Shown: positions 2,257-33,927 of the stretch, in pieces
How the letters are laid out: every line of letters starts with the position of its first letter
How positions within the stretch are numbered: position 1 is the first letter of the stretch
NCBI GenBank assembly: GCA_947258755.1
Contig: CAMYJO010000002.1
Span: forward strand, 208,909 to 272,908
Reading direction: 5' to 3'
DNA from: an uncultured Gammaproteobacteria bacterium
GTDB taxonomy: Bacteria; Pseudomonadota; Gammaproteobacteria; JAADHQ01
Length of the DNA stretch: 64,000 nt
The notes under the pieces: model-generated
Database searches by the model: none
The model's input: the letters and a program-made list of their open reading frames with translations, nothing else
What the model was told of the DNA's origin: nothing
Translations under genes and position numbers: made by a program

Positions 2257-3936
2257 ATGTGTGCTGATGAAACATCATCGACTCCAAGTAATTTTATTCG
2301 TCATATTATTGATGATGACATCAAGGCCAATAAGAACGACGGCAAGGTCGCGACGCGTTTTCCGCCCGAGCCGAATGGCTATCTGCATATCGGCCACGCA
2401 AAATCGATTTGCCTCAATTTTGGCATCGGCAAAGATTATAATGGCACCTGTAACCTGCGTTTTGATGATACCAATCCACACAAAGAAAACCTGGAATTTG
2501 TTGAGGCGATCAAGGAAGATGTGCGCTGGCTGGAATACGATTGGGATGACCGGCTCTTTTATGCATCAGATTATTTTGAAGCGCTGTATCAATTTGCTGT
2601 GCAGTTGGTTGAGAAGCAACTGGCCTATGTCTGTGATCTGAACGCCGAGCAAATAAGGGACTATCGCGGCACCTTGACCGAGCCCGGACGCGACAGTCCC
2701 TACCGCAATCGCACAGTAGAAGAAAACCTTGACCTGTTCAAGCGTATGCGCGACGGCGAGTTCGAGGATGGTAGTAAGGTCTTGAGGGCGAAGATAGACA
2801 TGGCCTCGCCGAATATCAATTTACGCGATCCGACAATCTATCGTATTCGCCATGGCGTCATACATCATCAGACCGGCGAGTCATGGTGTATCTATCCAAT
2901 GTATGACTTTACCCATTGCTTGTCCGATTCCATCGAAGGCATCACGCATTCGCTGTGTACGCTGGAGTTTGAAGATCATCGACCATTGTATGATTGGTTT
3001 CTTGATAGCCTTGATGTCGATTGTCATCCACAACAAATAGAATTTTCAAGGTTGAATCTCGAATACACGGTGACTAGTAAGCGCAAATTGACCGAGTTGG
3101 TAGAGCAGGGTCATGTCGAAGGCTGGGATGATCCGCGTATGCCGACCATAGCCGGTTTGAGACGGCGAGGTTTTACATCCGCGTCCATTCGCGATTTTTG
3201 CAATCGTATCGGTGTGACCAAGGCCGATAACCTGGTCGAAATGGGTGTATTGGAGAGTTGCATTCGTGAAGACCTGAATGACAATGCGCCCAGACGCATG
3301 GCCGTCCTGCATCCGCTCAAGGTGATCTTAAGCAATTACCCTGAGGGCAAGCAGGAAGAGCTACAACCCGCTAACCACCCACAGCATGAGGCTATGGGTA
3401 CGCGTAAGGTGATTATGGAGCGCGAACTTTATATAGACAGGAATGATTTTGCCGAGATACCGCCAAAGAAATTCAAGCGCCTGATCCCTGGCGGTGAAGT
3501 ACGCCTACGTAATGGCTACGTTATCCGTTGCGATGAAGTGATCAAGGATGATAAGGGTGAGGTGATAGAATTACATTGCAGCTATGATGAGGCTACTCTC
3601 GGCGCCAATCCTGAGGGCCGCAAGGTCAAGGGTGTGATCCACTGGCTGTCGGCCAATCATTCGATCAAGGCAGAAATACGTCTGTATGACCGCCTGTTTA
3701 CCCATCCATTACCGGATGCAAGCAAGGAAGGTAAGGATTACAGCGAATACCTGAATCCGGAATCATTGCTGACCCTGACGCAATGTTATGTAGAGGCAAG
3801 TCTCGTCGATGCCCAGCCAGGCGATACCTTTCAGTTTGAGCGCGAGGGTTATTTTAGCCTGGATAAAGCACGATCCGCCAATGACATGCCTGTCTTCAAC
3901 CGCACCGTGACCTTGCGCGATACCTGGAAAAAATAG
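2257..3936 (+). CDS. glnS: glutaminyl-tRNA synthetase
   Basis: [10 protein letters not shown]..., class-I HIGH motif ([14 protein letters not shown]), full GlnS length. I prefer the start at ATG 2257, which has GAGGAAA 6 nt upstream, over the ORF-track start at 2233. Confidence 0.9.
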
Positions 3937-3937
3937 T

Positions 3938-4016
3938 GGCGAGTAGCTAGTGGCTAGTAGCTAGGTGAATGACTCTTTGTTTTTGATTGTCCTAGCCACT
4001 CGCAACTAGCTACTGT
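3938..4016. repeat. large imperfect inverted repeat (arms ~3938-3965 and ~3991-4016) directly after the glnS stop; left arm is built of 7-mer tandems TAGTGGC/TAGTAGC
   Basis: Seen directly: tagtggcgagtagctagtggctagtagctagg versus cctagccactcgcaactagctactg (reverse-complement related), separated by a T-rich loop. Possible glnS terminator structure. Confidence 0.5.
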
Positions 4017-4022
4017 TCTTTG

Positions 4023-4080
4023 GTAGGAGCGGCCCTTGGCCGCGAATCATATAATATCGCGAGCAAGGCTCGCTCCCACA
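4023..4080. repeat. 58-bp palindromic intergenic repeat, copy 1 (REP-like hairpin element)
   Basis: gtaggagcggcccttggccgcgaatcatataatatcgcgagcaaggctcgctcccaca is identical to 4307-4364. Internal ~19-bp imperfect stem (ggagcggcccttggccgcg / cgcgagcaaggctcgctcc) around an AT-rich loop containing TATAAT. Confidence 0.8.
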
Positions 4081-4306
4081 GGGATTGTGTCGGGTTTTTA
4101 TTTGAATGATTTTCACGGATGAAAAAATAACCAGCATAAAAAATACTTTTTCAGCACGCTTGCCTGCTGGATCGTAACTATTCATTTACTCGTAATGGAT
4201 GAGGGGGGCAATGCAGCGGCAGCATTTATGCTGAACTATTGTGAAGCCCAAACAGAAGTCTTGTTAGGTTTTTCGGTTTTTCCTAGCCACCCGCTACTAT
4301 GTTCCA

Positions 4307-4364
4307 GTAGGAGCGGCCCTTGGCCGCGAATCATATAATATCGCGAGCAAGGCTCGCTCCCACA
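4307..4364. repeat. 58-bp palindromic intergenic repeat, copy 2 (direct orientation)
   Basis: Exact copy of 4023-4080. The 5' flank (cctagccacccgctact...) is also related to the 5' flank of copy 1 (3991-4022). Confidence 0.8.
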
Positions 4365-4467
4365 AGAGCTGTGTTAAAAAAGCCATGGAGAAAGATGGTG
4401 TTAGCTGAGGAGTTTTTCACGGCACCATCAAACAGACTACTCTCCATGGCTATAAACTGTTACTAAG

Positions 4468-5061
4468 TCAGTAAGAAGGCCTGTTAAAAAGCCGGGCCAG
4501 CCAGTAATCGATGCTGAAGAACCTTCCCGCGCCGATAAAAAATAATACCAGTAGCATAATGAAGTAGGTTGCCGCGAACTCGATACCATTTTTCAGTACC
4601 GTGATCGATCCATGCTCGGTGATCCATTCATAATTGCTATTTTCCTTGAGGATCTCTCTGGCGCGCTCTTTGCGTATATTGGCTTCCTTGATCTTGTCTT
4701 TTTTCCATTCCCAGGGCACGGTGAGGGTGTCATCCGGGAGCGCATGCCAGCCATTTTCCCAATGCGCAGTGCCGGCAGCGACAGCCATCGTGAACATCAG
4801 CGGAATCGCTATCCAGCGTACGGCCAGGCCTACAAGCAGTAAAATGCCGCCGATTAATTCAGTTAGGCCTGCGAGCCAGACCATTAATTCAGGGGCTGGT
4901 AGACCCAAGGATCCGAAGTACCAGGCGGTGCTTTCTATATTTGATAATTTTCCAAGCCCTGCGTATATGAATATTGGTGCCAGGAAAATTCTCAGCGCCA
5001 GTGGGCCTAGAAAATCGAGGATGCGAGTTTTGTCGAGCAGGTTTTGCAAGGTCGTGAGCAT
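4468..5061 (-). CDS. DoxX-family membrane protein (4th gene of the bufferin-like operon)
   Basis: 197 aa with a hydrophobic DoxX-like N-terminal half (FLAPIFIYAGLGKL..., LAGLTELIGGILLLVGL). Begins 25 nt downstream of the DUF2063 gene on the same strand. Confidence 0.8.
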   Translation of the reverse strand: MLTTLQNLLDKTRILDFLGPLALRIFLAPIFIYAGLGKLSNIESTAWYFGSLGLPAPELMVWLAGLTELIGGILLLVGLAVRWIAIPLMFTMAVAAGTAHWENGWHALPDDTLTVPWEWKKDKIKEANIRKERAREILKENSNYEWITEHGSITVLKNGIEFAATYFIMLLVLFFIGAGRFFSIDYWLARLFNRPSY

Positions 5062-5085
5062 GGTAGGTCTCCCGTGCTGTTATTG

Positions 5086-5868
5086 TTATCGTGTGCGCAC
5101 GCCCAGTAGAATATCGGCTTCGCGCAATTGCTCCATTATTTCCAGTCCACCGGTTATGACAACGCTAGGGTCTGAATGGTTCAGCTCATCGGCGATATTT
5201 TTTAATAATTGCCCGCCGGTCTGTTCGCTATCCAGTTGCAGGCTTTGGATCATATGTGCTGTCACTGGATTGATTTCCATGAAACCGATTTCATCATCGC
5301 GGTCGCGGTAAACGATCAATGTCGTTATTTGCTCAGGCGGTAATGTGGGTTGATAATCAGGGCCGATATGTTGAACATCAAATTGGTAGCTGAGTAGCCA
5401 GGCCAGCGGTGATAAAACGGGAATGTTCTGCAGAAAATCACCTTGCGGGTCTATGCCGGTCTCATCGATCTCCTGCTCGGCAACGGTCAGTGCCAGCTCG
5501 ACCCATTCGTAATGGGCCAGTTCCTGCATGAATGCAGGATCGTTGCTGTTATCTCGTTCGTTTTCCAGGTAATCGAGAAACTCTTCGGATATTTCCAGAA
5601 AGTAAGGGGTCTTGCAATGATGGCGGGAGAAAAAGTCCCGGACCATGGCGTGCCAGGTTTTATCGTCAGTGAGATCACGCAGAACAGGAAAGCCGCTGGA
5701 AATAAAGCCTTCCACATTATTGTAAAACAGCTCGCGGTAGATACCCATGCGACGATCTTCGACATCATCCGGTTTGCTGTGGATGTCGGGGTTACGTATA
5801 TGCGCAGCAAATTCTAGCTGTTTGCTGATGAATTCTGGCTGCTTATCCTTGTGCGCTTTGCTGTTCAA
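5086..5868 (-). CDS. DUF2063-family protein (BufC-like partner of the MNIO enzyme)
   Basis: LEFAAHIRNPD..., RRMGIYRELFYNNVEGFISSGFPVL is typical of DUF2063. Proposed start is TTG at 5868 with GGAG 6 nt upstream. The ORF-track ATG at 6033 would overlap the DUF692 gene by 190 nt. Confidence 0.7.
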   Translation of the reverse strand: MNSKAHKDKQPEFISKQLEFAAHIRNPDIHSKPDDVEDRRMGIYRELFYNNVEGFISSGFPVLRDLTDDKTWHAMVRDFFSRHHCKTPYFLEISEEFLDYLENERDNSNDPAFMQELAHYEWVELALTVAEQEIDETGIDPQGDFLQNIPVLSPLAWLLSYQFDVQHIGPDYQPTLPPEQITTLIVYRDRDDEIGFMEINPVTAHMIQSLQLDSEQTGGQLLKNIADELNHSDPSVVITGGLEIMEQLREADILLGVRTR

Positions 5869-6697
5869 TGCGACTCCATTTTTCCTGCATGTTGGAAATG
5901 GTGGCAATTTCCTGTAACAGTTCGGCCAGTGGGGGTATGTTAAAATCACGTTCCAGTAAGGTTGGGACCACGCCAAGATGAGCGTAGGTCTGATCGAGTA
6001 ATTGCCAAACGGGATCAATAACATCGGCGCCATGTGTGTCGACGATCAGATCTTCGGCTTCCTGATAATGGCCGGCAACGTGTATATAGACCACGCGTTC
6101 TGCAGGTAATGCCTTCAGGTATTGTTCTGCATCGTAGCGGTGATTAACGCTATTGACGTAAATATTGTTTACATCGAGTAACAAATTGCAATCGGCCTCG
6201 TCGAGAACGGCATTGATAAAGTCAATTTCCGTCATCTGCTGGCCGGGTGCGGCATAGTACGAGACGTTTTCCATGGCAATGCGTTGTTCCAGCGTGTCCT
6301 GGACAATACGAATGCGTTCAGCAACGTATTTTACCGCTTCTTCTGTGAACGGGATGGGTAGCAGGTCATACAGGTGGCCGCTGTCACTGCAATAACTGAG
6401 GTGTTCGGTATAGGTTTTGATATCGTGATCTTTTAGGAAAACCTTGAGCTTTCGTAAAAAATCCATGTCCAGTGGAGATGGGCTGCCGATCGATAAAGAC
6501 AGTCCATGGCTGACAAACGGATACTGTTCGGTGAAATGGCGGAATTGTTTACCTAAGCTACCACCAACACCGATCCAGTTTTCCGGCGCAACTTCCATGA
6601 AGTCAATTTGTGTAGGACTGGCCTCGGCCAACGAATCCATCATGGATCGTCGCAGGCCAAGACCGGTTCCTTGCACAGGGTACTGTGTTTGCTTCAT
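5843..6697 (-). CDS. DUF692 / multinuclear non-heme iron oxidase (MNIO, BufB/MbnB-like)
   Basis: GTGLGLRRSM..., TIM-barrel DUF692 pattern (FMEVAPENW..., HVAGHYQ...). Start taken at ATG 6697 (MKQTQYP), 14 nt after the precursor stop. The ORF-track start 6742 lies inside the upstream gene. Confidence 0.8.
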   Translation of the reverse strand: MKQTQYPVQGTGLGLRRSMMDSLAEASPTQIDFMEVAPENWIGVGGSLGKQFRHFTEQYPFVSHGLSLSIGSPSPLDMDFLRKLKVFLKDHDIKTYTEHLSYCSDSGHLYDLLPIPFTEEAVKYVAERIRIVQDTLEQRIAMENVSYYAAPGQQMTEIDFINAVLDEADCNLLLDVNNIYVNSVNHRYDAEQYLKALPAERVVYIHVAGHYQEAEDLIVDTHGADVIDPVWQLLDQTYAHLGVVPTLLERDFNIPPLAELLQEIATISNMQEKWSRIEQQSAQG

Positions 6698-6710
6698 GAA
6701 GTGGCAGACC

Positions 6711-7244
6711 TTATTTCTTGCCGCCGCATTTGCCTTCACCACATTTGCCTTCTTTGGCTTTTTCCATCTTTTCAGAGCCTTTCATGCCGCCACATTTACC
6801 TTCGCCACATTTACCTTCCATGCCTTTTTTCTTGGCGTTTTTGTACATTTTCTTTTCTTCCATGGTGATCATGCCATCTTTGTTGGCATCCATACGATCG
6901 AACTTGCTTGCATGGTAGGCATCAAATTCAGCACGACTAACACTACCGTCACCGTCTTTATCCATTTTATTCATCATCTTGCCGCCGCATTTGCCCTGTT
7001 TGGCTTTCATGCCGCCGCACTTACCTTCGCCGCATTTGCCTTCTTTGGCTTTCTCGGTTTTCATGCCGCCGCATTTGCCTTCACCACATTTACCTTCCAT
7101 AGCAGCAATCTGCATATAGCCACTGCTGAGTTGTGTGGCGGAGAAAGGATTTTCATTGGCCTGTACTGCAGAGCTTGCAGTCACAGACAGGAATGCTGCA
7201 CCCAGTGCAGCCGCCAGAGGTTTTTGCGTATACTTCTTAGCCAT
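6711..7244 (-). CDS. secreted Cys-repeat RiPP precursor candidate (bufferin-like) with two EF-hand loops
   Basis: Start ATG 7244 has GAGGAG 8 nt upstream. Sec signal peptide ends AVQA|NE. Four EGKCGEGKCGG repeats plus one GKCGG give 9 Cys. Two canonical EF-hand loops, DKDGDGSVSRAE and DANKDGMITMEE, sit between the repeat blocks. Immediately upstream of DUF692. Confidence 0.75.
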   Translation of the reverse strand: MAKKYTQKPLAAALGAAFLSVTASSAVQANENPFSATQLSSGYMQIAAMEGKCGEGKCGGMKTEKAKEGKCGEGKCGGMKAKQGKCGGKMMNKMDKDGDGSVSRAEFDAYHASKFDRMDANKDGMITMEEKKMYKNAKKKGMEGKCGEGKCGGMKGSEKMEKAKEGKCGEGKCGGKK

Positions 7245-7415
7245 ATTTGTGCTCCTCGAGGATAATAATATATTAAAGTTGACCAATTAATTCTGTATCA
7301 GGCCGGTCTTCAGTGGTTGCAGCATCATGACTGCAGCGACTGTCTTGCCTTGAATGATAGGACTTGATCATTTACAGGAAGTTTCATTATAGGGGCAAAA
7401 AATCACAAATTTATA

Positions 7416-7853
7416 TCAAATTTTATCGATTAATCGCTTCAGGCAGTGGATATAGGTCAGTTCGTCAGGTAATTGACTATTATTTTGCGCCTGCCACAAA
7501 CTTTCACCAAGGCATTCCATCATCGCATGCTCGGCTTCATGTGGGTCACCGGCCTTTATTAGTATTTGTTGATATAGCTGTGTAATGCCGGATGGACGGT
7601 CTGTGCTGAATTGTTCGCGCAGACTGATGTGCATACCCATGTGCAGGAACGGATTGGTTTGACCCTGTTCCGGCAGGTAGTCCTGGTCGAGGTCATCAAG
7701 TTCGTTCTCCAGCATGGATTGATATTCCGGATGCATACTGACGACTTCGGCAATCATATTTTCCAGTGCCTCTATTGGTTGGCGGTTTTTGTATTTTAGC
7801 CACGCAGATCTGAACAGGTTTCTGATCTGATTTTTGTCCTGACCAACTATCAT
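7416..7853 (-). CDS. DUF1841-family protein
   Basis: 145 aa conserved hypothetical protein. Directly follows nth with a 3-nt gap on the same strand. Confidence 0.6.
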   Translation of the reverse strand: MIVGQDKNQIRNLFRSAWLKYKNRQPIEALENMIAEVVSMHPEYQSMLENELDDLDQDYLPEQGQTNPFLHMGMHISLREQFSTDRPSGITQLYQQILIKAGDPHEAEHAMMECLGESLWQAQNNSQLPDELTYIHCLKRLIDKI

Positions 7854-7856
7854 GTT

Positions 7857-8504
7857 TTACTCACTATCCAGGTCTTCGGTCTTGTGTTTGAATTCACACA
7901 AGTCTTCGATGATACAGGAACCACAGCGAGGTTTACGTGCGATGCAGGTGTAGCGTCCGTGTAGGATCAGCCAGTGATGGGCGTCAACTTTAAATTCATC
8001 AGGCACAAATTTCAGTAGTTTCTTTTCAACTTCAATGACATTTTTACCCGGCGCTAGCCCAATGCGATTCGAGACCCGAAAGATATGCGTGTCAACTGCA
8101 ATGGTGGGCTGACCAAAGGCAGTGTTCAAGACGACATTGGCCGTTTTTCTACCAACACCCGGTAATGCTTCCAATGCAGCGCGCTCAGCCGGTACCCGTC
8201 CCTTATGCTGATCGACCAGGATCTGGCATGTTTTAATGACATTGGCACCCTTGGTATTGAACAGGCCAATCGTCTTGATGTATTCCTTCACCCCGGCTTC
8301 ACCGAGCTTTAGCATAGCCGCAGGAGTTTTGCATTTTTTGAACAAGGCACGGGTTGCCTTGTTAACACCGACATCGGTTGCCTGTGCCGATAGCATGACC
8401 GCGATCAATAACTGAAAGGTATTGCTGTATTGCAGTTCTGTTTGCGGTGATGGGTTATGTTGTTTTAGGCGCTGAAAAATCTCGTAGCGTTTATTGGCAT
8501 TCAT
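7857..8504 (-). CDS. nth: endonuclease III
   Basis: HhH-GPD motif (LPGVGRKTANVVL) and a C-terminal 4Fe-4S cysteine cluster (CIARKPRCGSCIIEDLC). Sits downstream of rnfE as in the E. coli rsx-nth operon. Confidence 0.9.
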   Translation of the reverse strand: MNANKRYEIFQRLKQHNPSPQTELQYSNTFQLLIAVMLSAQATDVGVNKATRALFKKCKTPAAMLKLGEAGVKEYIKTIGLFNTKGANVIKTCQILVDQHKGRVPAERAALEALPGVGRKTANVVLNTAFGQPTIAVDTHIFRVSNRIGLAPGKNVIEVEKKLLKFVPDEFKVDAHHWLILHGRYTCIARKPRCGSCIIEDLCEFKHKTEDLDSE

Positions 8505-8521
8505 ACACGCAAACCCCGCTT

Positions 8522-9208
8522 TCAGGAACGGGCAGTTTCAGTCTGGGGGATGATTAATGGTTCAGTACGGGCGGCCATTCTACGATCAATGATATTCTTC
8601 AGCGCGATAATCAGCCCCAGGCCGATAAAGGCCCCCGGTGGCAGGATCGCTAGCAGGAAGCCGGGGTAGTCATCGCTGAAGGTAATGGTCAGGTCGCGTG
8701 CGGCCTGGCCGAACATCAGGTCGGCATTGGCCAGTAAGGTGCCTTGACCCAGTAGCTCGCGAATGCCACCCAACAGCACCAGTACAGCTGTAAATCCCAA
8801 TCCCATCATCAGACCATCAACAAAGGAATCTTGTACCGAATGTTTTGACGCGTAAGATTCCGCCCTGCCAATGATGGCGCAATTAGTGACGATCAGTGGA
8901 ATAAAAATGCCCAGGGTTTTATACAGGGGATGAAAATAAGCGCTCAGTACCAGCTCAACCGTAGTTACCAGGGCGGCAATGATCATGACAAAGACGGGAA
9001 TGCGAATCTCACTGCTGACGAAATTCCTGATCATGGAAACAATCACGTTGGATCCAGTAAGTACCAGCAGGGTGGCAATGCCCAGCCCCAGGCCATTGAT
9101 GACGGTTGATGTAACCGCCAGCAGTGGGCAAAGCCCGAGTAATTGCACCAGTGCTGGGTTGTTTGTCCAAAGACCATTTTTGATCAGTGTGTTTGTTTCT
9201 GCACTCAT
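8522..9208 (-). CDS. rnfE: Rnf/Rsx electron transport complex subunit E
   Basis: Polytopic membrane protein of the RnfA/E family ([20 protein letters not shown]). Confidence 0.9.
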
Positions 9209-9843
9209 GATTCTTTTTTTCCGCTGTCAGCAAACAAGGTCTGCTTATGTGTCCTGAAGTATAGCAAAGTATTATGCACTGCCTTGACGATAGCGCGTGG
9301 TGTGATCGTGGCGCCAGTAAACTGGTCAAAAAAGCCGCCATCTTTCTTCACTTTCCAGTGTTTCTCTGACGGGTTTTGTAAGGATTTTTCATTAAAGCCC
9401 AGTATCCAGTCAGATCGTTGTTCTTCGATAGCGTCGCCCAGGCCCGGCGTTTCAAGGTGACTGATGACGCGCACGCCAGTCAGTATGCCATTGAGATCGA
9501 CGCCCACTAATAGTTTTATTTTGCCATTATAGCCATTCGGGGCAATGCTCGCGAATACGGCAGCAACTGGCGTACCTTGCTTGCGCGCGATGTAGACATC
9601 GACCGGTTCATCAGAACCCAGTAGCTCGGCATCACTGATCTTGATGCTGTCATGGTACGGGTCATTGTCATGCATCTCGGGTTTGATGATGTTATGCAGG
9701 CTTTGCAGCAGGGCATCGCGTTCGTTCTGCATAATTCTGTCTTTGGTAGCATTATGGGTAATACTCAGTATCGAGGTGCCAACAAAGGCGAACAGCGACA
9801 GCAGGAGTGCCGAGCGAAACATGTTTTCCCGTGCACTTTTCAT
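9205..9843 (-). CDS. rnfG: Rnf/Rsx electron transport complex subunit G (FMN-binding)
   Basis: Signal/anchor followed by an FMN-binding domain ([11 protein letters not shown]). Overlaps rnfE by 4 nt. Confidence 0.85.
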
Positions 9844-10862
9844 TTTCCGGATGCTCCGAATACGCGCGGCTGAGTGTAGTAGTCGATGGTAGGCACAGCC
9901 ATGTTCATCAATAACACCGCAAAGGCGATGCCGTCAGGATAACCACCCCATGTTCTGATAATGAATGTCAGTGCGCCAATACCCACGGCATAGATGATTC
10001 TGCCTTTGGGTGTGGTGCTGGCGCTGACCGGGTCAGTAGCAATAAAAAATGCCGCCAGTATCGTACCGCCACTGAATAATTGGAATAAGGGGTTGCTGTA
10101 TTGCTGCGGGTCGGCAAGATAAAAAATACCGGCCATTACCACGATGCTTAATAATAGGCTCACGGGTATTTGCCAGCTGATAATGCCACGATAAATCAGC
10201 CACAGTCCACCCAGCAGGAAGGCGGCGGCGATCCATTCCCATCCTGCTCCACCCCAAAAACCAAACAGTGGCGAGGCGCTGATTTCGCTAATGCTCTGAT
10301 TCAGGCTTAGCCCGGTTTTAATGCTATCGATCGGTGTTGCCGAGGTAATGCTGTCGAGGCTGATAGCAGCATTCAGTTCACCCAGGAACAGGTACTGTAA
10401 AGCCTGGGATAAATCCAGCCCGGCATGTGGTTGTAACCACTGGGTCATGTATTGTGGAAACGAAATCATGACGACCACATAACCGACCATAGCGGGATTG
10501 AAGGGGTTATACCCGAGTCCTCCATAGAGATGCTTGGCGACAACAATAGCAAACAGGGTGGCGATGACGATTAACCACCAGGGTGCCAGGGTGGGTAGGG
10601 CCAGGGCAAGCAGGCAGGCAGTCAGTATGGCACTGTTGTCACGCAGGAAGAATGCCAGCGGCCGCTTTCTCAATAACAGCATCAGTGCTTCACTGGCTAC
10701 GGCTGTCAGGCAGGCGAGGATGATATTGACAAGGATGCTCCAGCCAAAAAAATAACTATAGACCAGGATGCCCGGAATCAACGCATAGATGACCTGCAAC
10801 ATAACCAGCGATATGTTCTGATTGTTGTGCAGATAGGGTGATGATGTTTTTTTAAATTGCAT
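9840..10862 (-). CDS. rnfD: Rnf/Rsx electron transport complex subunit D
   Basis: 340 aa polytopic membrane protein, NqrB/RnfD family, in conserved operon position. Confidence 0.85.
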   Translation of the reverse strand: MQFKKTSSPYLHNNQNISLVMLQVIYALIPGILVYSYFFGWSILVNIILACLTAVASEALMLLLRKRPLAFFLRDNSAILTACLLALALPTLAPWWLIVIATLFAIVVAKHLYGGLGYNPFNPAMVGYVVVMISFPQYMTQWLQPHAGLDLSQALQYLFLGELNAAISLDSITSATPIDSIKTGLSLNQSISEISASPLFGFWGGAGWEWIAAAFLLGGLWLIYRGIISWQIPVSLLLSIVVMAGIFYLADPQQYSNPLFQLFSGGTILAAFFIATDPVSASTTPKGRIIYAVGIGALTFIIRTWGGYPDGIAFAVLLMNMAVPTIDYYTQPRVFGASGK

Positions 10863-10868
10863 ATTTAT

Positions 10869-12515
10869 TTATGACGTTGAGTCTTTCTGTTCCTGGTTTC
10901 TTCTTGCATCTATGTCATCGATTTTCTTTTGCTGCTCGGCAGATAGATTGTCGATGTTCTTTGTTTGCGTCTGACTTTTTTTCTGTTTCTCGCGTACGCG
11001 CTCCAGCGCCGCCTCGATCGCATCCTTTTTACTGTCCTTGGTCTTTTCGTCCTTGCCGGTCTTGAGCGCAGCTTTTTTCTTGCGCATGCGCTCTTCGCGT
11101 TCCTTCTTCTCTTTTTCGAGACGTTCGAGCCTGAACTCATGGCGTAGGCGAGCCCGGTCGGATTTTTTCTTGTCTCTTTCCAGTGCCCATATTTCCGTTT
11201 TGGCAAAACGGTAGTATTGCACTAAGGGTATTTGACTAGGGCATACATAGGAACAACAGCCGCATTCGATACAGTCGAATAAATTATAATCCTGGATTTT
11301 ATCAAAATCCCTGGCATAGGCCTGCCAATATAATTGCTGCGGTAATAGCTGCGCGGGACACACGTCCATGCAGGCACCGCAGCGAATGCAGGGCATTGCT
11401 TGCTGTTCCTGGGCATCGGCTTCACCTTCCCCGAATGCCAGTACGCAATTGCTAGTCTTGATGATCGGTATCTTATCGGTGCCAAGATTAAAGCCCATCA
11501 TTGGCCCGCCCATGACGAGTCGCTTGATCGAATCGTGATAACCGCCGCAATATGTAATCCATTCATCAACCGGTGTGCCAATCAATACTTCATGATTGCC
11601 GGGCTGCTTAATGCCTTCGCCCGTTAGCGTGACGATGCGCGAGATCAATGGCTTGTTGTAAGTGACCGCCTGGTAAATCGCGGCTGCGGTGGCGACGTTC
11701 TGACAAACAACGCCGACATCCAGTGGCAAGCCATGGCTTGGCGATTCTTTGCCTGTTAGTACCTTGATCAGCTGCTTCTCACCACCGGCTGGATAGAGAG
11801 TCGGTATACTGATGATCTCTATGTCATCGATACCCAGTTTTGAGCAGGCATCTTTCAGGGCAGCATGAGCTTCAGGCTTGTTGTCTTCAATGCCGATCAG
11901 GCAGCGCCGCGCCTGTAATGCATGTTTCATGATGCGTATACCGTTGATGACATCCTCGGCACGCTCGCGCATCAACATGTCATCACAAGTGATGTAGGGT
12001 TCGCATTCAGCCGCGTTGATGATGAGTTCATCGATGGCTGTTTTCGCGCCTGGATTCAATTTAATAAAGGATGGAAATCCTGCGCCGCCCAGACCGACTA
12101 TGCCGGCATCGCGGATCCTGTTGCGTAAGGCGCTGGGATCCATCTGGCGGTAATCTGCGCTACTATCCAGATCGATCCATTCGTCCTTGCCATCTGGCTT
12201 GATAACGATACAGGTCGCTGACAGGCCGGACGGGTGTGGTACTGGCTGTTCAATGATCTGACTGACAGTACCCGATGTTGGCGCATGCAAGGGCACACTG
12301 ACATAACCATTGGCTTTGGCGATGATCTGTCCCTTCAAGACAGGGTCACCTTCCTTGACCGTTGCCTCCGAGGATTCACCGATATGTTGCTGTAAAGGCA
12401 GTACCAGGCGCGAGGGAATGAAGACATCGCCAATGGCCTGGCCGGTTGAGATTTCCTTGTGCCCGGGCAGATGCAGGCCGCCATGAAAGTTAAATAGTTT
12501 ATGCTTCGATTGCAT
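10869..12515 (-). CDS. rnfC: Rnf/Rsx electron transport complex subunit C
   Basis: LFNFHGGLHLPGHKE N-terminus and two 4Fe-4S ferredoxin motifs (CIRCGACMDVCP, CIECGCCSYVCP). Start set at ATG 12515, translationally coupled to rnfB (TAATG). Long Lys/Glu-rich C-terminal tail. Confidence 0.85.
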   Translation of the reverse strand: MQSKHKLFNFHGGLHLPGHKEISTGQAIGDVFIPSRLVLPLQQHIGESSEATVKEGDPVLKGQIIAKANGYVSVPLHAPTSGTVSQIIEQPVPHPSGLSATCIVIKPDGKDEWIDLDSSADYRQMDPSALRNRIRDAGIVGLGGAGFPSFIKLNPGAKTAIDELIINAAECEPYITCDDMLMRERAEDVINGIRIMKHALQARRCLIGIEDNKPEAHAALKDACSKLGIDDIEIISIPTLYPAGGEKQLIKVLTGKESPSHGLPLDVGVVCQNVATAAAIYQAVTYNKPLISRIVTLTGEGIKQPGNHEVLIGTPVDEWITYCGGYHDSIKRLVMGGPMMGFNLGTDKIPIIKTSNCVLAFGEGEADAQEQQAMPCIRCGACMDVCPAQLLPQQLYWQAYARDFDKIQDYNLFDCIECGCCSYVCPSQIPLVQYYRFAKTEIWALERDKKKSDRARLRHEFRLERLEKEKKEREERMRKKKAALKTGKDEKTKDSKKDAIEAALERVREKQKKSQTQTKNIDNLSAEQQKKIDDIDARRNQEQKDSTS

Positions 12516-13096
12516 TACTCTGTCACCGTCGTTTGCGTGTCCGGGGTGATCTCTGCACCTGCCTGGGTCGGGCTTGGCCATCTCCAGGTGCTGATATCTT
12601 CCTCAACGGGGATAATGTGGATACATTCAACCGGGCATGGCGGTATGCATAGATCACAGCCGGTACACTCACTGGCGATCACGGTATGCATTTGTTTGGC
12701 AGCGCCGAGTATCGCGTCGACCGGACAGGCCTGGATGCAAAGCGTGCAACCGATGCAGACCTTTTCATCGATATAGACGACTGTTTTTTCTTCGGCTTCA
12801 ATGCCATTTTCGGGGTTCAGGGGTTTTGGATCCAGACCCAGCAAATCGGCCAGGGCGACGATAGTCGCCTCGCCACCTGGGGGGCACTGGTTTATATCGG
12901 CTTCACCCTTGGCAATAGCCTCAGCATAGGGTCGACATCCGGGGAAGCTGCATTGGCCACATTGGGTCTGTGGCAGGATCGCATCGATCTTGTCGACGAC
13001 CGGATCGCCCTTGATGCGAAAACGGGTAGCGACATAACCGAGTATCACGCCAAAGATAGCGGCCAGCAGGCTCATTGTCAGGATAGCTTCAAGCAT
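12515..13096 (-). CDS. rnfB: Rnf/Rsx electron transport complex subunit B (ferredoxin-type)
   Basis: N-terminal anchor plus several CxxCxxCxxxCP clusters. Confidence 0.9.
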
Positions 13097-13680
13097 CAGA
13101 ATTTAATCAGGCCCGAGAACCCCATAAACGCAAGCGACATCAAACCGGCTGTGATCAGGGAGATGGCATTACCCTTGAAGGCCTCGGGCACATCGGCGAC
13201 AGCAATTCTTTCGCGCATGGCAGCGAATAATATCAGTACCATGGAAAACCCCACAGCGGCACCGAATCCATACAGTGTCGATGCGATAAAGCCATGCTGT
13301 TCCTGGATGTTGAGTAGGGCGACACCGAGGACGGCGCAATTGGTGGTAATCAATGGCAGAAATATGCCGAGCACCTGGTACAACAGCGGGCTGGTTTTAT
13401 GCACGACCATCTCGGTGACCTGGACAACAACGGCAATCACGAGAATAAAGCTGATGGTGCGTAGAAATTCGATTTCCAGTGGGATCAGCAAGTACTCATT
13501 GACCAGATAGCTGCACACCGAGGACAGGGTCAGGACAAAGGTTGTGGCCAGAGACATGCCGACGGCGGTTTCCAATTTTCGTGACACGCCCATGAACGGG
13601 CACAGGCCGAGAAATTTCACCAGCACGAAATTATTCACGAGGACAGTACTAACCAACAGCAGTGCGTATTCAGTCATCAT
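13096..13680 (-). CDS. rnfA: Rnf/Rsx electron transport complex subunit A
   Basis: 194 aa membrane protein ([10 protein letters not shown]...) and the first gene of rnfABCDGE. Overlaps the rnfB start by 1 nt. Confidence 0.9.
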
Positions 13681-30948: not shown

Positions 30949-31140
30949 AGCTCTATTTTACCTGAACTTTTACAGGTTATATCAGTCTTATTTTAATATA
31001 TTATATGCGCTGAGATAATAAATTATATGCCCCTTGTGAATATATTATTTTCGCCAAGGCCTGTTATGCTAATTACCGTGCAGGATTCATCAGCAACGCA
31101 TGCCTGTAACATAACATAAGCCACAAAATGGAGTGTTGAT

Positions 31141-31692
31141 ATGGTTCGTTTGTATCACCTGATCACCGGCCTGATACTGGTGCTGATGTTGGGAAGTGCC
31201 TCTGCCGAGTTACCGCGAGACCCGGCCGAGTTCTTTTTCGAGCATACCCTGGGTGATTTGACCGCTGACCTGGAAGAAGCCAAAGCCAATAATAAGAAAG
31301 GCGTGTTACTGTTCTTCGAACAGGAGGAATGTCCTTTCTGTCATCGCATGAAAACGACCATCCTCAATCAAGTCAAGGTGCAGGATTATTTCCAACAACG
31401 CTTCCTGGTACTGAGTATAGATATCGAGAGTGATGAAGAGCTAAGGGATTTTGCCGGCAATGAGACGACGAAGAAAAAATTCTTTGCCAAGATTGCAAAA
31501 AATCGTGGGGCAACACCGGTGTTCGCCTTTTTTGATTTGCAAGGCAAGTTGGTGGTGCGCTATACCGGAGCCGCCTCGGGTGTAGACGAGTTTATCTGGT
31601 TGGGTGAATACGCCAGTCAAAAAGTCTATAAAAAGATGCCATTTTCCAAGTACAAGCGCGAGAAACGCCGCCAACACCGTCAGTCCAGTTAG
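31141..31692 (+). CDS. secreted thioredoxin-like protein (CPFC motif)
   Basis: Signal peptide, then a thioredoxin-fold region with EECPFCHRMK. 183 aa. Confidence 0.65.
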   Translation: MVRLYHLITGLILVLMLGSASAELPRDPAEFFFEHTLGDLTADLEEAKANNKKGVLLFFEQEECPFCHRMKTTILNQVKVQDYFQQRFLVLSIDIESDEELRDFAGNETTKKKFFAKIAKNRGATPVFAFFDLQGKLVVRYTGAASGVDEFIWLGEYASQKVYKKMPFSKYKREKRRQHRQSS

Positions 31693-31829: not shown

Positions 31830-33146
31830 TTGTCCAAATCCAGATTTATAATCACTATTGTTTTGTTGTTAATGTTGGGTCGGGTCGGCGCTGAAGTTGA
31901 AAAAGCGAGGACGCTGCCCGAGCCACTGACGCTCAAAGATGCCTTGGCGTTGAGTAATAATGGACATCCCGACAACCTCGTGGCACGCAGTCGTTTACAG
32001 GCCGCCGAGGCCAGCAAGGAGAGTGTTGAAGCCGACAGTGGTCTGCAAACCAGCCTGCAGGGAAGGCTCAGATGGGTGGAGCCCGCAAGCCGTGTGCTGG
32101 ATCCGGAGCGCGATGATCATCGCATTGCTTTATTGGCAAAAAAACGTGTGTATGATTTTGGCCGTAGTTCAGCCAGTATCGCATCCGCAGACGCTGTGCT
32201 TAACTCACAGCAATGGCTTCTGCAGGACCAGCAGAATAAGCATCGCATCGAAATCATGCAGGCCTTTTTTAATGTCATCCTGGCTGACCTGGCCTATGCA
32301 CGCGACAATGAATTGATGGCTATTCAGTTTGTGCGATTTGATCGCGCCAAGGACAGAAACAATTTAGGACAGATACCGGATGTCGATTTACTGCAAGCGG
32401 AAAATAATTATTTTCAGGCGCGTAGTATCCGCTATGCAAGTGATGTCAAGCGCCGCGCAACGCGCTCGACGCTTGCGAATATACTCAATCATCCCGGCCA
32501 ACTGCCTGCCAATCTGGTGCGCCCGCAACTTGCCATGCTCGAACGTAAGCTGCCCGATATAGAACCATTACAACAACAGGCGCTTCAGAACAATCCTGCT
32601 TTGCAGGCGCTGCGACAGCAAGTGGAAGCGGCCCATCAGCAACTGAAGTCAGTGCGGGCACGAAAAAAACCAAGCATTGATCTGGAGCTGGAAGCGGCTG
32701 ACTACTCCAGGGACTTTCGTTTCAGTGATAAATTCCGAGCCGGTCTTGTATTCGAAATGCCCTTGAGTACCAGTGGTGCAATCGATGCGGCCATTGCACA
32801 ACAACAATCGGCGTTAACTGCAGCGCGCGCGCAGCAACAGAAAACGGAAATGGAGCTGCAGCAACAAGTGCTGGAATTATGGCAGCAACTCTATATTGTC
32901 CGCGCCCAGCGTGATGAAGCCGCCGTATTCTCTGAATACCGTGATACCGCCCTGGATGTAGATCGGGGTTTATATGAACTGGACGTGGCTGCAGATCTTG
33001 GTGATTCACTGGCGCTGTACTCTGCGGCGATTTATCAGTCGGCAAAGGCGGATTTTGATTATGCGCTGGCCTGGGCGCGCCTGGATGCGATAATGGGTAA
33101 GCAGGTCGGTGCCAATGAAAACAACGTGCAAGCACCCGAAAAGTGA
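31830..33146 (+). CDS. TolC-family outer-membrane efflux protein
   Basis: Signal peptide and OEP-family tandem repeats (LTLKDALALS..., NPALQALRQQVEAA...). 438 aa. Confidence 0.8.
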   Translation: MSKSRFIITIVLLLMLGRVGAEVEKARTLPEPLTLKDALALSNNGHPDNLVARSRLQAAEASKESVEADSGLQTSLQGRLRWVEPASRVLDPERDDHRIALLAKKRVYDFGRSSASIASADAVLNSQQWLLQDQQNKHRIEIMQAFFNVILADLAYARDNELMAIQFVRFDRAKDRNNLGQIPDVDLLQAENNYFQARSIRYASDVKRRATRSTLANILNHPGQLPANLVRPQLAMLERKLPDIEPLQQQALQNNPALQALRQQVEAAHQQLKSVRARKKPSIDLELEAADYSRDFRFSDKFRAGLVFEMPLSTSGAIDAAIAQQQSALTAARAQQQKTEMELQQQVLELWQQLYIVRAQRDEAAVFSEYRDTALDVDRGLYELDVAADLGDSLALYSAAIYQSAKADFDYALAWARLDAIMGKQVGANENNVQAPEK

Positions 33147-33153
33147 GTGACTT

Positions 33154-33927
33154 ATGAAACAGTTGAGAACGATGCAATGTGGCCTGGTGTTATTGGGCAG
33201 TTTATTGGCTGGACAGTCACTGGCGGCCGACAAACCTGCCGTGCTGGACTGGTATCAACCGATGTTGTTATCGACGCCAATGTCCGGGGTGGTCGAACAG
33301 GTATACGTCAGTAGCGGCCAGCGTCTGAAACCGAAGCAAAAATTACTAAGGCTCGACAGTCGTGGTTTCCGTGCCCGGGTCAGCAAGGCGGAAGCGGTGT
33401 TGAGCAGGGCGACAGAAAGCCATGCCGAGGCCAAGCTAGAGATGGAGCGTGCGCAGGAACTGTTTGATCGTACTGCGATCTCGGTACACGACCGTGAATT
33501 GGTCAGGATAGAATTCGCCAAGGCCATTGCCAATCTGAAAGAGGCCAAGGCTGAGCTGGTACAGGCGAAACTGGAGCTTGAATATAGCGAGATACGCGCC
33601 CCAAACGCCGGTATCGTACTACAGGTCTTTGCACACAAGGGTCAAACCGTTGTCCATCGATCTCAGTCCAAGCCACTGGTGGCGATGGCCTCGATGGATA
33701 AAATGCTGGCACGCGCGCATGTCAGTGCCGAGGACCTGGAGGGCCTGAAAATAGGTATGCGCATGGATGTCCGATTACAGGGACAGACGCTGACAGGGAA
33801 AGTACATCGCCTGGGCATGGAGCCGGTCAATCCACAACAACCGCCTATGTACCTGCTTGAAGTCGAATTCGATACCGCTGCCAAGAGCTACCGTAAAGGG
33901 CAGGAAGCCAGTATTATTTTACCGTGA
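33154..33927 (+). CDS. HlyD-family periplasmic adaptor (short membrane-fusion protein)
   Basis: Signal peptide, biotinyl/lipoyl-like hairpin and coiled-coil segments. 257 aa. 8 nt after the TolC-like gene. Confidence 0.7.
   Translation: MKQLRTMQCGLVLLGSLLAGQSLAADKPAVLDWYQPMLLSTPMSGVVEQVYVSSGQRLKPKQKLLRLDSRGFRARVSKAEAVLSRATESHAEAKLEMERAQELFDRTAISVHDRELVRIEFAKAIANLKEAKAELVQAKLELEYSEIRAPNAGIVLQVFAHKGQTVVHRSQSKPLVAMASMDKMLARAHVSAEDLEGLKIGMRMDVRLQGQTLTGKVHRLGMEPVNPQQPPMYLLEVEFDTAAKSYRKGQEASIILP

Follow-up and report, generated by a model that had tools for sequence, protein, structure and literature searches.

Gene clusters in which an MNIO (DUF692) iron oxidase and its DUF2063 partner modify the cysteines of a precursor are among the commonest classes of RiPPs (peptides that ribosomes synthesize and that are modified after translation). 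More than 20,000 such clusters of biosynthetic genes (BGCs) have been catalogued (PMC13097082), and this type of operon has been characterized biochemically. In the HvfABC, FonABC, and NgoABC systems, each EGKCG cysteine is converted to a 5-thiooxazole, and the products bind copper (PMC11252979, PMC13097082). Here, we describe a four-gene operon, hvfA-hvfB-hvfC-hvfX, that probably belongs to this group. It lies on the minus strand of a 64-kb stretch of DNA from an uncultured gammaproteobacterium (the whole stretch that we analyzed is called the window). The BGC type, the thiooxazole chemistry, the fusion of EF-hands to such precursors, and control by extracytoplasmic function (ECF) sigma factors in Haemophilus and Neisseria are already published, and no new chemistry comes from the locus. 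Its one unusual feature is the putative calcium-binding EF-hand pair within the precursor, which makes the locus a clear representative of the precursor subtype that bears EF-hands.

Nontypeable H. influenzae (NTHi) makes oxazolin from hvfABCX, which comprises the same four gene families; the HvfB, HvfC, and HvfX proteins of the window all pass the equivalog cutoffs. The two systems share a precursor with EGKCGEGKCG repeats and, probably, its export by Sec and dependence on an ECF sigma factor. They differ in that the DoxX gene comes first in NTHi and last in the window's operon. Furthermore, NTHi HvfA has 95 amino acids and lacks an EF-hand; it carries three repeats and a disulfide pair at its N terminus. 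The window's precursor has 177 amino acids, and its repeats flank a pair of EF-hands. The captophorins fontiphorin (fonABC, from Fontimonas thermophila), gonophorin (ngo), and the Microbulbifer mmr product also share the EGKCG core and an MNIO enzyme with a DUF2063/PME1 partner. These are further marked by 5-thiooxazole chemistry, copper binding, a conserved N-terminal region, and a variable number of repeats. Unlike the window's precursor, none of the characterized fon, ngo, or mmr precursors has an embedded folded domain.

Two other groups are similar in part. EfhP-like proteins (chimeras of Buf_EGKC and EF-hand_5) share with our precursor two EF-hand_5 domains and an EGKC-type region, and they are encoded directly upstream of MNIO and DUF2063 genes. 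As described (PMC12452194, PMC4053335), their EGKC domain is short, N-terminal, and devoid of the 17-residue repeats, their EF-hands are at the C terminus, and a transmembrane anchor is predicted. In contrast, the signal peptide predicted for the window's precursor is of the cleavable AXA type, its double repeats are full, and a second cysteine arm lies past the EF-hands. The bufferins of Caulobacter vibrioides, Buf1 (DUF2282) and Buf2 (with 6 or 12 cysteines), share the A-B-C plus DoxX logic and, by prediction, the Sec signal peptide and the conversion of cysteine to 5-thiooxazole. They function in copper stress, and they are frequently under ECF control. However, the precursor family is different, and the window's MNIO scores below the BufB cutoff. 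Also, Buf1 clusters often have their own sigma/NrsF pair, and there is none at the window's locus.

The operon and its family

The initial annotation had described four co-directional genes for a precursor, a DUF692 enzyme, a DUF2063 protein, and a DoxX protein. The open reading frame (ORF) listing and our reading of the sequence bear out the genes, their A-B-C-X order, their strand, and their coordinates (Table 1). hvfA and hvfB are separated by 13 nt, hvfB and hvfC overlap by 26 nt (an overlap that recurs in the relatives L081–L083; related loci are numbered in this way), and hvfC and hvfX are separated by 24 nt. This tight spacing and the overlap of hvfB with hvfC indicate, as far as sequence can, that the enzyme pair would be co-translated. 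The start codon of the precursor is supported by its closest homolog (P0001), which begins at the same methionine. hvfC has a putative TTG start, with the HvfC profile beginning at residue 17, and hvfX is preceded by GGGAGA, 8 nt 5' of its ATG and within the 24-nt gap.

Domain searches with Pfam agreed with the initial annotation at levels far beyond chance: PF05114 for the MNIO (E = 3e-108), PF09836 for HvfC (6e-27), and PF07681 for HvfX (1.6e-23). HvfC also matches PF22106 (6e-30), and the hydrophobic segments of HvfX begin near residues 14–21, 58–79, and 158–168. In NCBIfam, the MNIO matches the HvfB equivalog (NF003818) over residues 11–271 with 455.9 bits (the cutoff is 360). HvfC and HvfX are similarly clear, with 323.2 bits for the HvfC equivalog (NF050145; cutoff 142) and 195.5 bits for the HvfX family (NF050144; cutoff 80). 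The precursor matches KCGExKCG_twice (NF050137) in three stretches, with 55 bits and a cutoff of 19.5. As for other branches of the family, the MNIO scores just 41.9 bits against MbnB (TIGR04159; cutoff 325), which places it outside the methanobactin enzymes, and we found no MbnA-like ORF at the locus. It also falls below the NCBIfam cutoffs for ApyH and ChrH.

The nearest solved structures are PDB entries 3bww for the MNIO (8.8e-77) and 3dee for HvfC (1.4e-10), which are the reference entries for this class of BGC in the captophorin paper (PMC13097082). The metal-site motifs of the MNIO (HGLS64, EHLS98, MEN142, DVNN175, HVAGH206, DTH220, and ERD249) are intact and align with 3bww. DVNN175 and D220-T-H222 match the Asn/Asp/His set of site 3 in HvfB, in which the ligands N175/D242/H244 are essential (bioRxiv 10.64898/2026.07.17.739211); this match is at the level of motifs.

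Because the cutoffs for HvfB, HvfC, and HvfX are passed and the cutoff for BufB is not, we consider it likely that the locus is an MNIO RiPP operon of the Hvf/oxazolin type (Buf_EGKCG, or "captophorin") with a precursor of an EF-hand-bearing subtype. Hvf/oxazolin clusters are a sister group of the bufferins proper, and are neither Buf1 nor Buf2. The initial label, "bufferin-like", was thus right about the general type, an MNIO RiPP operon that has a cysteine-repeat precursor, a DUF2063 protein, and a DoxX protein, but the subfamily is Hvf/oxazolin. A strict bufferin operon (Buf1/DUF2282 or Buf2 with 6–12 cysteines, together with BufB and BufC) would show the same gene order, DUF2063 partner, DoxX protein, and Sec-exported precursor, and BufB is indeed the second-best NCBIfam match of the MNIO (1.5e-82). 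Still, we give this alternative almost no credence. The MNIO has 276.8 bits against the BufB equivalog (NF050167; cutoff 310) while it is well above the HvfB cutoff, and these scores already point to the HvfB/FonB clade and away from BufB1/BufB2. The precursor does not belong to a bufferin precursor family either, which the initial annotation had proposed as a check: Pfam finds no DUF2282 in it, and its cysteine pattern, on which we based this judgment, is of EGKCG repeats, unlike the 6- or 12-cysteine (Buf2) type. Such repeats are filed as Buf_EGKCG/oxazolin in the literature (PMC12452194).

The EF-hand-bearing precursor

The precursor consists of a predicted signal peptide, a conserved N-terminal motif, and two cysteine arms on either side of an EF-hand pair (Table 1). 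All 9 of its cysteines are within KCG motifs. The EF-hand pair matches EF-hand_5 (PF13202) in two stretches (1.4e-9), as well as EF-hand_1, EF-hand_7, and EF-hand_6 in Pfam, and both loops are canonical, with 12 residues each. An AlphaFold2 (AF2) model built from 81 homologs is confident only for residues ~88–146 (predicted local distance difference test scores of 89–96), where three helices surround the two loops; in the cysteine arms, the model predicts disorder. When we compared this model to folds in the PDB, the top matches were all EF-hand proteins, although disorder over two thirds of the model left none of them significant (E of at least 0.19), so the comparison is qualitative only. 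The initial annotation had called the protein a secreted cysteine-repeat precursor. The repeats and the Sec-type N terminus are present, but the canonical EF-hand pair (residues 88–143) had been overlooked.

The predicted signal peptide has a KK n-region, a hydrophobic core (residues 9–19), and a cleavage site between AVQA and NE, judging from the hydropathy profile and the AXA rule. The signal peptide of HvfA was found experimentally to be cleaved (PMC11252979). In the motif that follows (NPF..L.SGYM), P33 and F34 are invariant across 81 aligned sequences and N32, G42, and Y43 are at least 90% conserved; C86 and the Asp, Gly, and Glu positions of the loops are also invariant in this alignment. 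The motif is found near the N terminus of nearly all of the precursors from 80 related loci. It is a likely docking site for HvfC; contact between a leader and the RiPP recognition element (RRE) has been modeled for MmrA/MmrC (PMC12538549).

An exact-sequence look-up with the precursor found no identical record, and its best protein match is 64% identical. Among the 120 best-scoring clusters of homologs, 85 have cysteine motifs on both sides of the EF loops, and 80 of those have the two loops adjacent to each other. Most of the EF-hand homologs listed have four cysteines past the loops, corresponding to two C-terminal double repeats. The picture is different if we start from the enzyme. The MNIO is 66–76% identical to the MNIOs of the 80 best-matching genome loci (the best is 76% identical), and only two of these loci (L004 and L028) encode an EF-hand precursor. 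The others, including the closest (L001), have plain EGKCG precursors. This scattered occurrence among loci with similar MNIOs suggests repeated gain or loss of the EF-hands on a constant enzymatic background.

Fusions of EF-hands to EGKC domains have been noted previously (PMC12452194), and EfhP has been studied as a Ca2+ sensor (PMC4053335, PMC9132961). As far as we found, the accounts of the EF-hand precursor subtype in the literature are bioinformatic, and none presents it as an MNIO substrate. We also did not find the combination of a cleavable-type signal peptide, full double repeats, and a second cysteine arm spelled out in the papers that we consulted; this combination is common in metagenomes.

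Some close relatives have other precursor or cluster variants (L075, L060, L028, L043, L044, and L053). In L075 (9412–9975), a repeated MTLDECKAKMKKMKAKMK module lies between EGKCG blocks in place of the EF-hand, and L060 has two precursor genes (2408–2674 and 4164–4403). In the window itself, the strand opposite the precursor has an ORF of 273 amino acids (6444–7265, plus strand). We rejected it as a gene, since no gene matches it and it is a low-complexity mirror of the Gly/Lys/Cys repeats, but it could mislead gene callers.

Table 1. Features of the operon, its precursor, and its upstream region, in coordinates of the window
Feature	Coordinates	Strand	Basis
hvfA-like precursor, 177 aa, ATG start	6711..7244	-	ORF listing, Pfam, NCBIfam, homologs
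hvfB, MNIO (DUF692) iron oxidase, 284 aa	5843..6697	-	PF05114, HvfB equivalog
hvfC, DUF2063 partner (HvfC_N + NGO1945_C/HvfC_C), 260 aa	5086..5868	-	PF09836, PF22106
hvfX, DoxX-family inner-membrane protein, 197 aa	4468..5061	-	PF07681, HvfX family
Predicted Sec-type signal peptide, residues 1-28 (MAKKYTQKPLAAALGAAFLSVTASSAVQA, followed by NE)	7161..7244	-	hydropathy and AXA rule
Conserved N-terminal motif ENPFSATQLSSGYMQIA (NPF..L.SGYM)	7104..7154	-	81-sequence alignment
N-terminal Cys arm, two EGKCGEGKCGG and one GKCGG; Cys 53, 58, 71, 76, 86	6984..7100	-	sequence
EF-hand pair, residues 88-143; loops DKDGDGSVSRAE (95-106) and DANKDGMITMEE (119-130)	6816..6983	-	Pfam, AF2
C-terminal Cys arm, two EGKCGEGKCGG; Cys 146, 151, 168, 173	6714..6815	-	sequence
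Ribosome-binding site GAGGAG, 7 nt 5' of hvfA ATG	7252..7257	-	sequence; GGAG at the same place in related loci
Candidate ECF (RpoE/AlgU-like) promoter	7358..7385	-	conserved motif; resemblance to sigmaE consensus

Upstream motif and chromosomal setting

The operon has its own upstream region, which the initial annotation put at about 170 bp: 171 nt (7245–7415) separate the DUF1841 gene from hvfA. Regulation had been described as unclear, but the region contains a conserved motif with the form of an ECF promoter, which fits what is known from Haemophilus and Neisseria (PMC7907618, PMC2893595). Across related loci, the pattern [GA]AAC[TC][TC]-N15-17-GTCNT[AT] is found 95–160 nt before the start codon in DNA that is otherwise unalignable. 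Of 30 curated upstream regions of hvfA, 18 contain it, compared with 0.06 on average and at most 2 after shuffling, and so do 19 of 48 regions that were collected automatically (0.18 on average after shuffling). If both strands are considered, the strict pattern has 36 matches in 1.3 Mb of related loci, of which 21 are directly upstream of hvfA-type genes, and just two matches in the 64-kb window. The candidate promoter of the operon has a -35 element of GAAACTT (7385–7379), a 16-nt spacer, and a -10 element of (G)TCCTA (7363/7362–7358), and the predicted 5' untranslated region is about 105 nt.

The motif resembles the sigmaE consensus of E. coli (GGAACTT/TCAAA), and its -10 element is akin to that of Neisseria (CGTCTAA; both are quoted in PMC2893595). 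The four hvf genes of H. influenzae all depend on RpoE2 (PMC7907618), and in Neisseria, the homologous genes are in a sigmaE operon (PMC2893595, PMC3240639). Because of the form of the motif and the ECF control of these relatives, the operon is most likely transcribed from an ECF-type promoter, with the sigma factor encoded elsewhere.

Several observations count against this view of the promoter. The promoter is a consensus match, and its -10 element (TCCTA) differs from the commonest form (GTCATA). As the initial annotation had noted, there is no sigma/anti-sigma pair nearby: we found no such gene in positions 1–22455 of the window, which encode PAS-GGDEF-EAL, gloA, glnS, the rnf genes, metG, apbC, dcd, purN, and purM. 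The strict motif is absent from many of the loci in Nitrosomonas, Neptuniibacter, and Porticoccus. Finally, a scan found no terminator-like site between DUF1841 and hvfA, so read-through from rnf-nth may contribute to expression. Taken further, there might be no dedicated stress promoter at all: the operon would be expressed as part of the rnf-nth-DUF1841 transcript, and the motif would have another function or be a remnant. The missing terminator, the lack of a sigma70-like promoter in 7245–7415 (by a generic promoter scan), and the conserved adjacency to rnf-nth would all fit. However, hvfA retains the motif in loci that lack nth and DUF1841 (e.g., L002 and L073) and in loci where hvfA is apart from hvfB (L040, L045, and L053). 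The motif also consists of two blocks with a fixed spacer, like an ECF promoter, and relatives are ECF-controlled (PMC7907618). We therefore regard transcription by read-through alone as unlikely but tenable.

Two other searches gave nothing. A tblastn search of the whole window with E. coli RpoE (an approximate query sequence) had no match, and Rfam (3800–8000) has no known riboswitch or small RNA in the ~105-nt leader (only a chance match to a microRNA, with E of 0.87). The window's second match to the strict motif (30962–30993 on the plus strand, GAACTTTTACAGGTTATATCAGTCTTA) is intergenic, ~150 nt 5' of a gene for a secreted thioredoxin-like protein (31141–31692; PF13098), which is followed by OEP (31830–33146) and HlyD (33154–33927) genes. 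The thioredoxin-like gene may belong to the same regulon; the Neisseria and Haemophilus regulons include periplasmic Trx-MsrAB. We rejected the idea that its product is an ortholog of the redoxin whose gene adjoins hvfX in L083 (24% identity over 78 amino acids, E of 0.003), which leaves this connection weak.

The initial annotation placed the cluster within a housekeeping region, directly after rnf-nth-DUF1841. The position is correct, but it is a conserved arrangement and not an isolated oddity. For 61 related loci, the upstream sequence was long enough to look for nth. It lies on the same strand and no more than 3.5 kb away in 27 of them, with DUF1841 in between in 18 of those 27. The recurrent arrangement is rnfG-rnfE-nth-(DUF1841)-hvfA-B-C-X (the rnf-nth side is at 7416–13680 in the window), and all three of the EF-hand relatives that we examined (L081–L083) have rnfABCDGE-nth-(DUF1841)-A-B-C-DoxX. 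rnf-nth(-DUF1841) is a conserved chromosomal address for the cluster across several gammaproteobacterial families. Besides L081–L083, it is shared by L001 (which also has a convergent glnS, as in the window), L004, L008, L009, L022, L025, L029–L032, L041, L051, L055, L062, L070, and L079. The cluster is hosted by uncultured Gammaproteobacteria, among them Thioalkalispiraceae, Chromatiales, and Woeseiaceae. In Nitrosomonas, Neptuniibacter, and Porticoccus, the cluster is elsewhere in the genome. We found no mention of the rnf-nth linkage or of the promoter motif in the papers that we consulted, and we do not claim that they are unreported.

Two possibilities raised by this setting were rejected. 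DUF1841 does not seem to be a member of the system, as it lies upstream of the promoter motif, and 9 of the 27 loci linked to nth do not have it. Recent horizontal acquisition is not supported either, because the GC content of the cluster (0.47–0.50) matches its flanks and synteny is conserved.

In several loci, hvfA adjoins nth and DoxX-hvfB-hvfC is 2–6 kb away. A gene for a protein of ~500 amino acids with the glutamate-synthase flavin mononucleotide (FMN) domain (PF01645) is next to the DoxX and MNIO genes in three unrelated loci (L028, 7618–9114; L040, 7901–9436; L081, 9070–10605). In L028 and L040, it is between hvfA and DoxX-hvfB-hvfC. This gene is absent from the window, and we did not find it listed as an accessory gene in the surveys of BGCs that we consulted. 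Thiol-disulfide oxidoreductase genes (ResA/TlpA-like or AhpC/Redoxin) adjoin hvfX in two of the EF-hand-type loci (L083, 8811–9852; L082, 9229–9739), which may point to a repeated association with redox proteins of the periplasm. On the other side of the operon, between hvfX and the convergent glnS, the window has two copies of a 92-nt repeat (3999–4090 and 4283–4374) that are 85% identical. Each copy has two GC-rich hairpins (GGAGCGGCCCTTGGCCGCGA and GCGAGCAAGGCTCGC) and resembles a repetitive extragenic palindromic (REP) element; the core 21-mer occurs only at those two places in the window. These repeats may serve as terminators or stabilizers for the convergent transcripts. Just past the glnS stop codon (3928–4021), a tandem 14-mer (TAGTGGCGAGTAGC / TAGTGGCTAGTAGC) and imperfect inverted repeats of 29–30 nt may form the terminator region of glnS.

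Predicted maturation and the question of calcium

The genes present, the families to which they belong, the layout of repeats and EF-hands, the synteny, and the conservation of the motif all come from our own analysis. From published relatives, we infer the chemistry, copper binding, export, calcium binding, and sigma factor of the system as follows. Transcription would begin from GAAACTT-N16-TCCTA, ~105 nt upstream; the operon would then belong to a regulon for envelope stress, oxidative stress, or metal stress, under a sigma factor whose gene lies elsewhere. The 177-amino-acid precursor would be made in the cytoplasm and bound by HvfC (DUF2063, with an RRE-like C-terminal domain), probably via the NPF..L.SGYM segment. 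HvfC would enable the active mixed-valent diiron state of HvfB, which would oxidize the EGKCG cysteines by four electrons each to give 5-thiooxazoles, at up to nine sites (about -36 Da). The precursor would be exported by Sec and cleaved after AVQA28. The thiooxazole arms would then sequester copper in the periplasm or outside the cell, and the central EF-hand pair would bind two Ca2+. HvfX (DoxX) is a membrane protein.

A few points speak against this scheme or limit it. The precursor scores 62.4 bits against the HvfA equivalog (NF050188), which is below the cutoff of 95, and the match covers only residues 12–87; the EF-hand insertion and the second cysteine arm fall outside the HvfA model. 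The precursor is therefore not a straightforward ortholog of HvfA. Modification, export, and the binding of copper and calcium are all extrapolated. Also, the lone site at Cys86 may remain a thiol, given that single EGKCG repeats of FonA were not modified in vitro (PMC13097082).

The product of the modification and the purpose of the precursor could both be read differently. The initial annotation's prediction of thiooxazoles, with -4 Da for each cysteine, should apply to the EGKCG branch as well, since oxazolin was reassigned from oxazolone/thioamide to 5-thiooxazole (PMC13097082; bioRxiv 10.64898/2026.07.17.739211). HvfA was at first assigned an oxazolone/thioamide pair like that of methanobactin (PMC11252979), the wording "oxazolone/thioamide-modified" survives in the NCBIfam names, and both products have the same mass shift of -4 Da. 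But alkylation-assisted heteronuclear multiple bond correlation (HMBC) nuclear magnetic resonance (NMR) led to the reassignment of oxazolin, fontiphorin, and gonophorin to 5-thiooxazole (PMC13097082), and the original authors concur (bioRxiv 10.64898/2026.06.05.730506, 10.64898/2026.07.17.739211), which makes the older structure highly improbable here. As for purpose, the precursor might be mainly a periplasmic sensor or buffer of Ca2+, like EfhP, and not chiefly a copper RiPP. The cysteine repeats and the MNIO would then be secondary, or the EF-hand would block full modification. The two EF loops fit this idea, as both are canonical and the domain around them is confidently folded. So does EfhP of P. 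aeruginosa (PA4107), which is in an operon with DUF692/DUF2063, binds Ca2+, and affects calcium-dependent phenotypes (PMC4053335, PMC9132961), and calcium homeostasis or signaling was raised for such fusions in the landscape paper (PMC12452194). We nevertheless find a primarily calcium-related role very doubtful. The precursor keeps 4.5 full units of EGKCGEGKCG, the motif that was modified experimentally, and these flank the EF-hands on both sides. It also keeps the N-terminal motif of plain precursors, and, as described above, its MNIO is closely similar to those of loci that mostly have plain EGKCG precursors.

Within the Hvf/oxazolin reading, calcium might still matter. A speculative and doubtful idea is that EF-hand "sandwich" precursors are a distinct RiPP-derived class, with a folded Ca2+-binding domain inside the modified core and with Ca2+ gating copper. 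Because the N and C termini of the EF-hand pair lie close together, the binding of Ca2+ could bring the thiooxazole arms together or move them apart, which could tie the capture or release of copper to periplasmic calcium or make a Ca/Cu sensor. If this is true, then the precursor would not just soak up copper passively but would be a metallophore with a second metal as its gate.

For the family, the cluster occupies a fixed site after rnf-nth(-DUF1841) in many environmental Gammaproteobacteria, and the conserved ECF-type motif could serve in the search for the cognate sigma factor and its regulon where the sigma gene is not adjacent to the cluster. An effect of Ca2+ on copper binding would bear on the cellular role of EGKCG metallophores.

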